Positions 441-19,164 of a stretch of 64,000 bases of DNA are shown here, piece after piece (position 1 is the first letter of the stretch; each line of letters opens with the position of its first letter). The stretch comes from Mobula hypostoma (lineage: Eukaryota): positions 53,446,001 through 53,510,000 of the forward strand of contig NC_086097.1 of assembly GCF_963921235.1 (NCBI RefSeq), written 5' to 3'. The notes beneath the pieces are model-generated. The model made no database searches. It worked only from the letters and a program-made list of their open reading frames with translations, and was not told where the DNA came from. A program made the position numbers and the translations under genes.

Positions 441-3400
441 AATCAGGAGGGAGGGCTTCATGTTTCTGGACAGTTGGGCTTTGTTTCAGGGAAGGTGGGA
501 CCTGTTCCGATGGGAGGGTTTGCACCTGAACTGGAGGGGGACTAACATCCTTGCAGGTAGGTTAGCTAGTGCTGCTTCGGGGAGTTTAAACTAGATTTGC
601 TGGGGGAGGGGAACCAGAGTGTTAGAGCAGATAGTGAGGTGGAGGAGGATAAAGGTCATGCGAGGACTGTATATGAAGACAGAAGTCAAAGGTTTGTACG
701 TGATAGAAATGTTCTCAGGTGCATCTATATCAATGCAAGGAGTATTGTAGGTAAGGCAGATGAGCTTAGGGCGTGGATTGGCACAGGGGATTATGACATT
801 ATTGCTATTAATGAGACTTAGTTGCAGGAAGGGCAGGACTGGCAGCTTAGTGTTCCAGGGTTCTGTCGTTTCAGACGTGATGGGGGGGGAGGGATGAAAG
901 GGGGAGGAGTGGCATTACTAGTCAGGGAAAATATCACAGCTGTGCGTAAACAGGACAGCCTGGAGGGCTCGTCTACAGAGGCCATATGGGTGGAGCTGAG
1001 GAACGGGAAAGGTGTGACCACACTAATAGGGTTGTATTACAGACTGCCTAATAGTCAGAGAGAATTGGAGGAGCAAATCTGTAGAGAGATAGCAGACCGA
1101 TGTAAGCAACAGAAAGTTGTAATAGCAGGGGATTTTAACTTTCCACATATTGACTGGGACTCCCACACTGTGAAAGGGCTGGATGGCTTGGAGTTTGTCA
1201 AATGTGTTCAGGAAAGTTTTCTAAATCAATATACAGAGGTACCAACGAGAGAGGATGCAATACTTGATCTCCTATTAAGGAACCTGACAGGTCAGGTGAC
1301 AGAAGTATGTGTAGGTGAACATTTTGGGTCCAGTGATCATAATGTCATTAGTTTCAAGTTAATTATGGATAAAGATAGGTCTGGTCCTCGAGCTGAGGTT
1401 CTAAATTGGAGAAGAGCCAATTTTGTGGAAATGAGAAAGGAGCTAGGAAGAGTGGATTAGGATAAGTTGTTTTCCGGCAAGGATGTGTTCAGTAAGTGGA
1501 AGGCCTTCAAAGGTGAAATTTTGAGAGTGCAGAGTTTGCATGTTCCTGCCAGGGTTAAAGGCAAAGTTAACAGGCATAGGGAACCTTGGTTTTCAAGGGA
1601 TATTGGCGATCTGGTTAAGAAAAAGAGAGAGGTGTATAGCAGGTTTAGGCAACAAGGAACAAATGAGGTACTTGAAGAGTATAGAAAATGTAAGAAAATA
1701 GTAAAGAAGGAAATCAGGAAGGCAAAAAAAGAAATGAGGTTGCTTTGGCAGATAATGTGAAGGTAAACCCGAAGGGTTTCTACAAGTATGTTAAGAGTAA
1801 AAGGATAGGAAGGGACAAAATTGGTCCCCTAGAAGATCAGTGTGTCACCTATGTGTGGGGCCTCACGAGATGTGGGAGATCTTAAACAGTTTTTTGCATC
1901 AGTATTTACTCTGGAAACTGGCATAGCATATATGGAAGGAAGGGAAACAAGCAGTAGTGTCATGGAACATATAGAGATTAAAGAGGAGGAGGTGCTTGCG
2001 GCTTTACAGGGAATAAAGGTAGATAAATCCCCTGGGTCTGACATGATATTTCCTCGGACCTCGAGAGAGACTAGTGTAGAAATTGCAGGGGCCCTGCCAG
2101 AAATATTTAAAATGTCCTTAGCCACAGGTGCGGTGCTGGAGGATTGGAAGGTAGCTCATGTTGTTCTGTTGTTTAAAAAAGGCTCCAAAAGTAAACCAGG
2201 CCAGTGAGCTTGACACCAATAGTAGGTAAATTATTGGAAGGTGTTCTGAGAGATCGGATATACAAGTATTGGACAGCCAAGGGCTGATTAAGGATAGTTA
2301 GCATGGCTTTGTGTGTGGTAGATCGTGTTCAACAAATCTTGTAGAGTTTTCTGAGGAGGTTACCAAGAAAGTAGATGAAGGAAAGGCTGTGGATGTTGTC
2401 TACATGGACTTTAGTACGGCCTTTGACAAGGTCCCACTTGGGAGGTTAGTTCAAAAGATTCAGTCACTAGGTATCCATGGAGAGATTGTAAACTGGATTC
2501 GAAATTGGCTGTGTGGGAGAAGACAGAGAGTGGTAGTGGATGATTGCTTCTCAAACTGGAGGCCTGTGACTAGTGGTGTGCCTCAGGGATCTGTGCTGGG
2601 ACCGTTGTTGTTTGTTGTCTATATCAATGATCTAGATGATAATGTGGTAAATTGGATCAGCAAGTTTGCTGATGACACTAAGATTGGAGGCATTGTGGAC
2701 AGCGAGGAAGGCTTTCAAAGCTTGCAGAGGGATCTGGACCAAATGGAAAAGTGGGCCAGAAAATGGCAGATGGAATTTGATGCAGATAAGTGTGAGGTGT
2801 TGCATTTTGGAAGGACAAATCAAGGCAGGACGTGCACAGTAAATGGTAGGGCACTGAGGAGTGCAGAGGAACAAAGCGATCTGGGAGTTCAGAAACATAA
2901 TTCCCTGAAAGTGGCATCACAGGTGGACAGGGTGGTAAAGGAGGCTTTCGGCATCCTGGCATTCATAAATCAAAGTATTGAGTACAGGAGTTGGGATGTT
3001 ATGGCGAGGTTGTATAAGACATTGGTGAGGCCAAATTTGGAGTATTGTGTGCAGTTCTGGTCACCTAACTATAGGAAGGATATCAATAAGATTGAAAGAG
3101 TGCAGAGAAGATTCACTAGGATGTTGCCTGGGTCTTCAGGAGTTGAGTTACAGGGAAAGATTGAACAGGTTAGGACTTTATTCCTTGGAGTATAGAAGAA
3201 TGAAGGGAGATTTGATAAAGATCTACAAAATTATGAGGGGTATAGACAGAGTAAATGTGAATAGGCTCTTTCCACTTAGATTAGGAGAGATAAATATGAG
3301 AAGACATGGCTTTAGGGTGAAAGGGGAAAGGTTTAGGGGGATCATTAGGAGGAACTTCTTTACTCAGAGAGTGGTGGGAGTGTGGAATGAGCTGCCATCT

Positions 3401-14849: not shown

Positions 14850-15105
14850 CCGAGAAGATGGGCCACATCTGGACTGGCCCAGGACAGAAGTCTCTGGCGA
14901 GCCACTGTTGGTGGCCTATGCCCCAGTAGGCATGAGAAGAAGAAGAAGAAGAAGAAGAAGAAGAAGAAGAAGAAGAAGAAGAAGAAGAAGAAGAAGAAGA
15001 AGAAGAAGAAGAAGAAGAAGAAGAAGAAGAAGAAGAAGAAGAAGAAGAAGAAGAAGAAGAAGAAGAAGAAGAAGAAGAAGAAGAAGAAGAAGAAGAAGAA
15101 GAAGA
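14850..15105 (+). mobile_element. RTE-type LINE extreme 3' end with expanded (GAA)n tail
   Basis: Encodes LAQDRSLWRATVGGLCP, a typical RTE-family C-terminus, directly followed by the AGA repeat. Confidence 0.7.
14935..15105. repeat. Perfect (AGA)57 microsatellite
   Basis: 171 bp uninterrupted trinucleotide tract, read directly. Confidence 0.98.
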
Positions 15106-18399: not shown

Positions 18400-18885
18400 T
18401 ACTGTGTACATACATCTATTGATGCTTCTGGACACATCTTCAGTGAAGTTCCTGGAATCATCGGGTGTTTCGGGTCTTCCAACATCATACAACCTCCTCC
18501 AGGTGACCCAGCCGGGGCTGATCAGACCCCAGCTTGTGTCCAGATGGCTAGCTACTTATGACTCCATGGCTCCCCTCCTTTGAGCCACAGCCATCTTGAG
18601 GCCCTCTCTGCCGCATCGGTGGTACTGCGGATGGCTCTCCTCTTCCTCTCTCCCTCGATGCCTAAAATGCTGAATGCTCTAACTAAAGAATGGGCTACGA
18701 ATCCCCTACAACCAACCTCCACTGGGAGACACCTCGCTCTCCATCCAGCCTGCTGACAGTTGCTGGCCAGTCCTGTGTACTTGGAGAGCTTCCTTTCAAA
18801 GGCCTCTTCCAAGCTATCTTCCCATGGGACTGTCACCTCCAGCAGCACCACTTGCTTAGTAGACTCAGACACTAGGACAATGTCT
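18400..18885 (-). mobile_element. HERO-type (R2-superfamily, restriction-like endonuclease) non-LTR retrotransposon, 3' end
   Basis: Minus ORF DIVLVSESTKQVVLLEVTVPWE...ERKLSKY...PVEVGCRGF...AAERASRWLWLK matches the PD-(D/E)xK RLE domain of HERO-like elements; stop at the end of ORF 18552-18995, followed by a structured 3' UTR. Confidence 0.85.
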
Positions 18886-19164
18886 GCAGTATTTCTGAAA
18901 GGAAACTTACTGACAACTTCTGTAGGTGTTATGGTAATCCTTTGCAAAAACTCAATTATACTAGATTTGACACTAAATAAAAGCTCACACTGCAACTGCG
19001 AAGCATGTTATAAATTTATGTTGGTGATCTTAAGAATATGTATTTGCTATTTTAATTAATATTTATTTTAGTTTTAGACAGAACTAAATCCTTAGAGTAG
19101 TACTAAATAGGGGCAAAATCCTGATCAATTGTAGGAAAATTTTCTTATTATCAACAGAACAACA

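Follow-up and report, generated by a model that had tools for sequence, protein, structure and literature searches.

A conserved hammerhead-type fold of unusual topology in HERO retrotransposons, and a possible ribozyme-made circular template for their reverse transcription

Non-LTR retrotransposons of the HERO clade carry in their 3′ UTR a real, clade-wide hammerhead-type fold whose topology is apparently undescribed. On balance we favor a reading in which these LINEs use the fold to make a circular RNA, copy it by rolling-circle target-primed reverse transcription, and do so with a hammerhead topology that lies outside the six proposed block permutations. The starting point was a single element copy from Mobula hypostoma (GCF_963921235.1, contig NC_086097.1, 53,446,001 to 53,510,000 of the forward strand); this whole stretch of 64,000 nt is called the window here, and all positions refer to it.

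The copy in the window is young and 5′-truncated, and it is 97% identical to dispersed copies across exactly the span given in Table 1. The hammerhead motif (minus strand, 18427-18544) starts 8 nt past the stop codon of the endonuclease-domain remnant, and a 25-nt piece of it has 1,872 exact occurrences in the Mobula hypostoma genome. In a full-length natural copy the frame is 1,166 aa long and includes RVT_1 and zf-RVT; its closest solved relatives in the PDB are R2 proteins, and the endonuclease motifs of the HERO ORF are visible in the protein alignment. HERO is therefore an R2-related element whose single ORF combines a reverse transcriptase with a C-terminal restriction-like endonuclease; the unit is ~3.6 kb long and autonomous, encoding its own reverse transcriptase. 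In a pairwise comparison the Mobula ORF is 63% identical to the Tetraodon polyprotein Q7T1J8, which we take to be HEROTn, and it is on this identity that the placement with named HERO elements rests. Dispersed Mobula copies have unrelated flanks and hence no fixed target sequence, in keeping with the description of the HERO clade in the available portion of PMC4640811. When the Mobula genome was searched by protein for divergent HERO families, the matches apparently all belonged to this one young family. Elsewhere in the window, at 14900-15100, a long GAA-type simple repeat sits at the tail of another retroelement fragment, and the region around it is dense in other LINE fragments.

All segments of the fold listed in the preliminary description lie on the minus strand where it had placed them (GUA 18488-18490, GAAAC 18467-18471, CUGAAGA 18437-18443). 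Its pair counts for stem I (6/7), stem III (5/6), the outer helix (10/10) and GGGUC/GACCC (5/5) were reproduced, and the extra helix it had suggested, CCUGGAG/UUCCAGG, pairs at 7/7 positions in the window copy. With 7/7 pairs in most copies, the mismatch in stem I represents a minority variant, and the U-C mismatch of stem III is the family majority (122/146 copies, with a pairing G in 14/146). Taken alone, the window copy folds only moderately better than its shuffles (z -2.85, 3/200) and its minimum-energy fold omits stems I-III. The bulge and GA in Table 1 were assigned by the kink-turn consensus. An alternative helix flanking block C was also noticed in this copy and was set aside in favor of P4, which covaries.

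Table 1. Positions in the window of the HERO copy and of the parts of its hammerhead-type fold.
Feature	Position	Strand	Evidence
5′-truncated HERO-clade RLE non-LTR retrotransposon copy, young, 485 nt, without poly(A) tail	18402..18886	-	dispersed-copy identity
ORF C-terminal remnant, restriction-like endonuclease region; stop codon 18552-18554	18552..18886	-	
X, 5′ arm of outer 10-bp helix; partner 18427-18436	18535..18544	-	10/10 pairs with changes on both sides; z 11.7
Hairpin, stacked without unpaired linker between X and Y; arm of four-way junction	18510..18534	-	
Self-complementary hexamer in hairpin loop	18519-18524	-	palindromic hexamer or longer in 27/44 homologs
Y, hammerhead stem II 5′ strand, moved upstream of cleavage block; 10.1 = G 18509	18505..18509	-	93% of cells paired; z 11.7
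P4 5′ strand	18497..18503	-	85% paired; z 9.1
GA, non-bulged strand of predicted kink-turn between P4 and stem III	18495..18496	-	pattern in 36/44
Block S, comprising stem III 5′ strand and cleavage triplet GUA; cut predicted at 18488/18487	18488..18494	-	
Stem I 5′ strand	18481..18487	-	93% paired; 5/5 pairs with changes on both sides
Block G: stem II 3′ strand 18472-18476, GAAA 18468-18471, stem III 3′ strand 18463-18468	18463..18476	-	
Kink-turn bulged strand (3-nt bulge and GA) 18458-18462, P4 3′ strand 18451-18457	18451..18462	-	
Stem I 3′ strand 18444-18450, CUGAAGA core 18437-18443	18437..18450	-	
X′, directly after A9, pairs with X instead of forming stem II	18427..18436	-	first base can pair with 11.1 in 7/42
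3′ tail up to reverse-transcription start point; seamless into 5′ UTR in full-length copies	18402..18426	-	

Relatives were collected by protein alone, taking the best 80 out of 256 metagenome loci (37-86% identical), and their downstream sequence was searched with a parser for two core words (at most one mismatch each) together with stems I and III, in which base 16.1 and base 17 were unrestricted. The parser succeeded on 56 of the 80 loci. Among 3′ regions of at least 200 nt it recognized 53/65, compared with 0/65 reverse complements and 2/650 dinucleotide shuffles, and 3 further loci carry the motif after a longer UTR. A covariance model matched 68 of the 80 protein-selected loci, every one on the sense strand; 26 of these matches lay outside the training set, and control loci gave 1 marginal match in 80. 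The 12 misses consisted of 8 loci with <170 nt of downstream sequence and 4 with more. Motif carriers are as distant from one another as 30% identity in the endonuclease domain.

The covariation and core invariance that the preliminary description had proposed to look for across HERO relatives are both present, in the form of a near-invariant core and covarying helices. Among the 44 non-redundant homologs, CUGANGA adjoins stem I and keeps C3 in 43 and U4, G5, A6, G8 and A9 in all 44, N7 being free. GAAA lies between stems II and III, with A13, A14 and A15.1 found in 44/44 and G12 in 42/44 (both exceptions G to A), G12 being retained despite its CpG context. The NUH triplet, between stems III and I, has U16.1 in 43/44, and its base 17 is C in 16 homologs, U in 15, A in 13 and G in none; in all parsed sequences, G stands there in 1/57.

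A search of Rfam with the window region and 20 homologous loci returned nothing relevant. No HERO protein relatives were found in viral contigs, and the search of prokaryote genomes yielded 3 short contigs with protein relatives, all without the motif. We considered and rejected occurrences of the motif outside HERO: viral core-word matches (at least 120) were chance ones, with a stem I of at least 4 pairs in 4 and of 5 pairs in none, and among the matches listed none had an upstream strand able to form stem II with more than 3 pairs. Judging from translations, named fish proteins and one amphioxus protein seem to read on into the same motif. In the fish families of P0001, P0054, P0057, P0059, P0062, P0064, P0066, P0068, P0074, P0075, P0080, P0082, P0083, P0111 and P0112 the ORF, again judging from translation, appears to cross the 5′ half of the ribozyme and to end exactly at the cleavage triplet, so that cleavage would remove the stop codon and ligation would restore it. 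A conserved start codon in the tail was discarded as a candidate, the tail being open in three of the family's own copies and the codon unconserved in homologs. At the unit head, a conserved run of short imperfect repeats starts 50-90 nt after the ribozyme core (L285:722-850, and in L069, L086, L089, L091, L110, L116, L118, L120 and L126); it is conserved as DNA or RNA, not as a reading frame, and is possibly a promoter or a protein-binding site.

The pairing was evaluated with a six-helix model on a sequence-only alignment of 43 sequences. In this model 80% of cells were paired, compared with 58% in shuffles and 37-45% with slid partners, and the covariation score was 0.513 versus 0.18 in shuffles, all of these being controls that ignore relatedness. 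Changes on both sides were found at 36/40 pairs, and paired cells amounted to 93% in stem I, 93% in stem II and 90% in stem III. For the helices that the parser does not use, own versus cross pairing gave z 11.7 for stem II, z 11.7 for the outer helix and z 9.1 for P4. The 5′ strand of stem II lies ~20-21 nt upstream of the cut, and its 10.1-11.1 pair is G-C in 33 homologs and G-U in 5 (38/44). The outer helix, the hairpin and stem II abut linker-free in most examples and form a four-way junction onto the core, and in 36/44 homologs stem III is connected to P4 by a 3-nt bulge and a GA that faces another GA, a predicted kink-turn-like arrangement. A9 is thereby not joined directly (0-2 nt) to the stem II 5′ strand, and in this the fold departs from the hammerhead definition.

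We rejected the reading in which stem II directly follows CUGANGA. The base after A9 pairs with 11.1 in 7/42 only, and allowing one extra base gives 19-29/42 per position, against 93% for the upstream strand. The strand after CUGANGA does give a weak cross-pairing signal (z 3.0), which by eye appears to come from one clade whose strand resembles the upstream strand. The preliminary description had filled the stem II position with two long-range helices; GGGUC/GACCC is indeed stem II, whereas the 10-bp helix is a separate arm of the four-way junction. As for its caution that the helices may not all form at once, all covary and their base usage is mutually compatible, so they need not be alternatives. 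The hairpin-loop palindrome occurs in three different versions among 27/44 homologs (L065-L144). It is a possible kissing-loop dimerization signal and as such could relate to the mosaic haplotypes discussed below.

The closest known design is that of the type-SGC hammerheads (HRIMA-1 and variants; Eckert, Friedrich, Weinberg and Weinberg 2023, PMC10085705), for which cleavage has been shown and which, as far as the available text of that paper goes, were found in metatranscriptomes and in no genome of a known organism. The same text assumes that CUGANGA and its flanking stems are inseparable. The block order in HERO (NUH, GAAA, CUGANGA) is, as previously claimed, not a circular permutation of the hammerhead, but because it matches published type SGC the order alone is not new. 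The HERO fold further shares with type SGC, as described there, full core conservation, a short linker between stems I and II, and a helix joining the far ends of these stems, to which P4 corresponds by analogy. The two differ in that stem II directly follows CUGANGA in type SGC, whereas in HERO a separate helix follows A9 and stem II is supplied from upstream via the four-way junction; HERO also has the kink-turn-like link to stem III, and its host is an animal retrotransposon clade. In effect, the HERO fold amounts to a type-SGC hammerhead with its ends joined by a kink-turn-like link and its chain reopened between A9 and G10.1, the four-way junction bridging the break. By comparison with the design in PMC10085705 it would work like a type-SGC hammerhead and lacks one defining feature, an uninterrupted block C. 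The earlier proposal of a rearranged hammerhead in the 3′ UTR of HERO, an RLE retrotransposon, is thus strongly backed by conservation and covariation, with cleavage as its prediction. We consider it likely that the fold is catalytically active.

We then asked how the element is arranged in the genome. The 5′ UTR motif was found 121 times in the Mobula genome, and 90 copies were examined. The element's own tail seamlessly precedes the 5′ UTR in 80 of the 90 copies that reach it, and the remaining 10 start within ~18 nt of the tail-to-head junction. The upstream cut is reached or passed by 55/90 copies, 46/90 contain a complete second ribozyme, and the longest upstream tail repeat measures ~1,590 nt. 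Of the 38 full-length loci retrieved, 31 (among L268-L287 and L472-L487) allowed a comparison of the two repeats. The repeats of a locus had 31 non-CpG minor alleles in common, versus 7.9 ± 2.3 in permutations (0/3000), and rare alleles were common to both repeats ~eight times more often within a locus (15/173) than between loci (56/5081). Common variants, by comparison, were discordant between the two repeats of one locus in 36 cases and shared in 14 (one non-CpG site, 6/14), which is more discordance than copying one molecule twice predicts and might reflect switching between paired RNAs or later gene conversion. One locus, L485, consists of 1.66 laps of an internally deleted unit of ~975 nt and has the identical joint in both laps, a joint absent from every other site examined. 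The seamless tails, the shared alleles and L485 together establish that the template is continuous across the tail-to-head junction and that in at least one case, L485, it was copied beyond once round.

Tail-to-head sequence also occurs in relatives, 12/43 homologous loci with at least 250 nt downstream running from the tail into an ORF start. One assembled RNA contig of relatives crosses from tail to head; it extends 28 letters on one side of the junction, fewer than the 31 needed, and was left uncounted. Truncated copies showed no peak at the cut: 0/89 ordinary copies end in the 20 nt upstream of it and 0/50 copies between +42 and -57 of it, a result that fits a ligated template and is just as compatible with an inactive fold. 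In the second lap, stops immediately 3′ of the cut were only weakly enriched (13/69 vs 4/56, p 0.07; 13 within 30 nt). No convincing target-site duplications were found in 19 full-length loci with both ends in range and, being mostly absent, such duplications cannot prove single insertion events. Flank duplications of 27-55 bp were seen in 5/68 truncated copies, mostly very short ones (L166, L167, L168, L176, L235). Internally deleted mini-elements (~820-1020 nt) display 16 distinct joints, all connecting unit positions 558-691 to 3263-3391, with short microhomology and no obvious splice signals (loci include L154, L155, L170, L187, L196, L199, L204, L227, L229, L237, L251, L485, L492 and L525). 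Long-range pairing between the two deletion hot spots was the best of 69 windows one way and average the other way, and the idea was dropped as unsupported.

It is probable, in our assessment, that the fold is a self-cleaving ribozyme serving to produce a covalent circle from which reverse transcription can copy more than one unit; cleavage, ligation and circles in HERO are here inferred from sequence. A copy with two complete ribozymes would be transcribed and its RNA cut at both, releasing a monomer. Around 28 bp in four helices would bridge the cut and clasp the monomer ends together, and the cleavage products are indeed predicted to stay bound (median -14 kcal/mol, 42 homologs). The ribozyme or a host RtcB-type ligase would then join the ends. 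The element protein would start target-primed reverse transcription ~86 nt downstream of the restored site, copying the intact ribozyme first and sometimes continuing into a second lap, which would regenerate the terminal repeat. Such a circle would account for the repeat of the element's own tail at the start of nearly all full-length copies. The preliminary description had held that retrotransposition of an intact motif forces cleavage to be slow or conditional; this does not follow, since a religated circle carries an intact site too, and the genome shows more-than-unit copying. Counting against this reading are the U-C mismatch of stem III as the family majority and the separation of A9 from G10.1, unlike the hammerheads surveyed in the available part of PMC10085705.

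Two other readings are both unlikely in our view. In the first the ribozyme is active and the monomer stays linear, the helices holding its ends or the ends of two monomers while the reverse transcriptase jumps the nick. Template jumping by R2 enzymes is known, the same conservation data and predicted binding of the products apply, the slight surplus of stops that the second lap shows 3′ of the cut is in its favor, and intermolecular jumps could account for the discordant common variants. Template jumps usually leave scars, however, and neither indels nor stops are concentrated at the cut in first-lap copies; moreover, discordant sites and shared private alleles alternate within one locus, with no switch at the cut. 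In the second, the hammerhead-derived fold would be catalytically silent and give the element's reverse transcriptase a place to dock, much as the structured R2 3′ UTR does, with partial tandems arising from read-through transcripts or template jumps and no cut at all. Free N7, a base 17 that is A, C or U and not G, and a G12 kept in a CpG context have no reason in a docking site, even though the fold is located where related elements keep protein-binding RNA, is always retrotransposed intact and has A9 and G10.1 disconnected. The conflict between helices vanishes once stem II comes from the upstream strand. A purely linear source would also lose the repeat over generations or carry shared 5′ flanks, and the shared flanks found are internal deletion joints or other repeats.

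Decidedly less probable is that the ribozyme serves for trimming only, the upstream ribozyme fixing the message's 5′ end, perhaps to the benefit of translation, and the downstream one being kept uncut by protein, with tandems derived from linear multimeric transcripts or self-insertion. Processing of the 5′ end by a ribozyme is a known role in R2 (PMC7650587, in the part available), and the 13 second-lap stops within 30 nt 3′ of the cut would agree with it. That 55/90 copies extend to or beyond the upstream cut, on the other hand, means that most templates did not end there, and independent self-insertion gives neither shared rare alleles nor a shared private deletion joint. Lastly, the notion that a G+C-rich UTR produced the core words and helices by chance, suggested by the modest folding of the single copy and its minimum-energy structure without stems I-III, is refuted by the parser's success on homologs relative to shuffles, by the covariation of every helix and by the covariance-model matches.

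The life cycle favored here has precedents in other elements. For Penelope-like elements, a ribozyme-made circle has been proposed to template reverse transcription beyond one unit (Cervera and De la Pena 2014, PMC4209133). As portrayed in the available portions of that work and of Craig et al. 2021 (PMC8557442), they resemble HERO in having a ribozyme near the 3′ end and partial head-to-tail tandems; their pseudo-LTR hammerheads are minimal type I ones thought to act as dimers, and they encode a GIY-YIG endonuclease and a telomerase-like reverse transcriptase. HERO has neither of these and is not a member of that group, being an R2-related LINE with a restriction-like endonuclease, and LINEs have been described as lacking terminal repeats (PMC8557442, in the part available). 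In non-LTR retrozymes, the monomers freed by tandem hammerheads build up as circular RNA, with RtcB as the likely agent of closure (Cervera and De la Pena 2020, PMC7229834). Retrozymes, in that account, are non-autonomous, 170-400 nt long and equipped with canonical type I hammerheads, whereas HERO is autonomous, ~3.6 kb long and has its own reverse transcriptase; circles are observed there and predicted here. R2 and related LINEs, as covered by the accessible sections of PMC7650587 and PMC13580325, likewise free the RNA of an RLE retrotransposon from a longer transcript by self-cleavage, which in HERO is predicted. Their ribozymes are HDV-like, sit at the 5′ end and yield a linear template, whereas that of HERO is of hammerhead type and lies in the 3′ UTR.

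In the literature covered, with Repbase Reports and most subscription journals outside that coverage, no paper links HERO to a hammerhead, and within the same limit the original paper is the only one found on type SGC (PMC10085705). The portions available of PMC4640811, PMC7650587, PMC13580325 and bioRxiv 10.64898/2026.07.22.740005 contain no HERO hammerhead. If our reading is correct, the wiring of this fold breaks the assumption behind the enumeration of six permutations, and HERO would hold, as far as the literature coverage reaches, the first non-circularly permuted hammerhead in animal genomes. Because the motif is invisible to Rfam, thousands of copies go unannotated. The circle model can be put to a direct test in an element with an enzyme of its own, and it is relevant to R2-type gene-insertion tools, for which a circular template could permit more-than-unit insertion. 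For the family itself, it would place a circular template in the life cycle of an autonomous R2-related LINE, where until now such a cycle has been put forward for Penelope-like elements and demonstrated for retrozymes, and it would answer how a LINE without a poly(A) tail or a fixed target defines the ends of its RNA.
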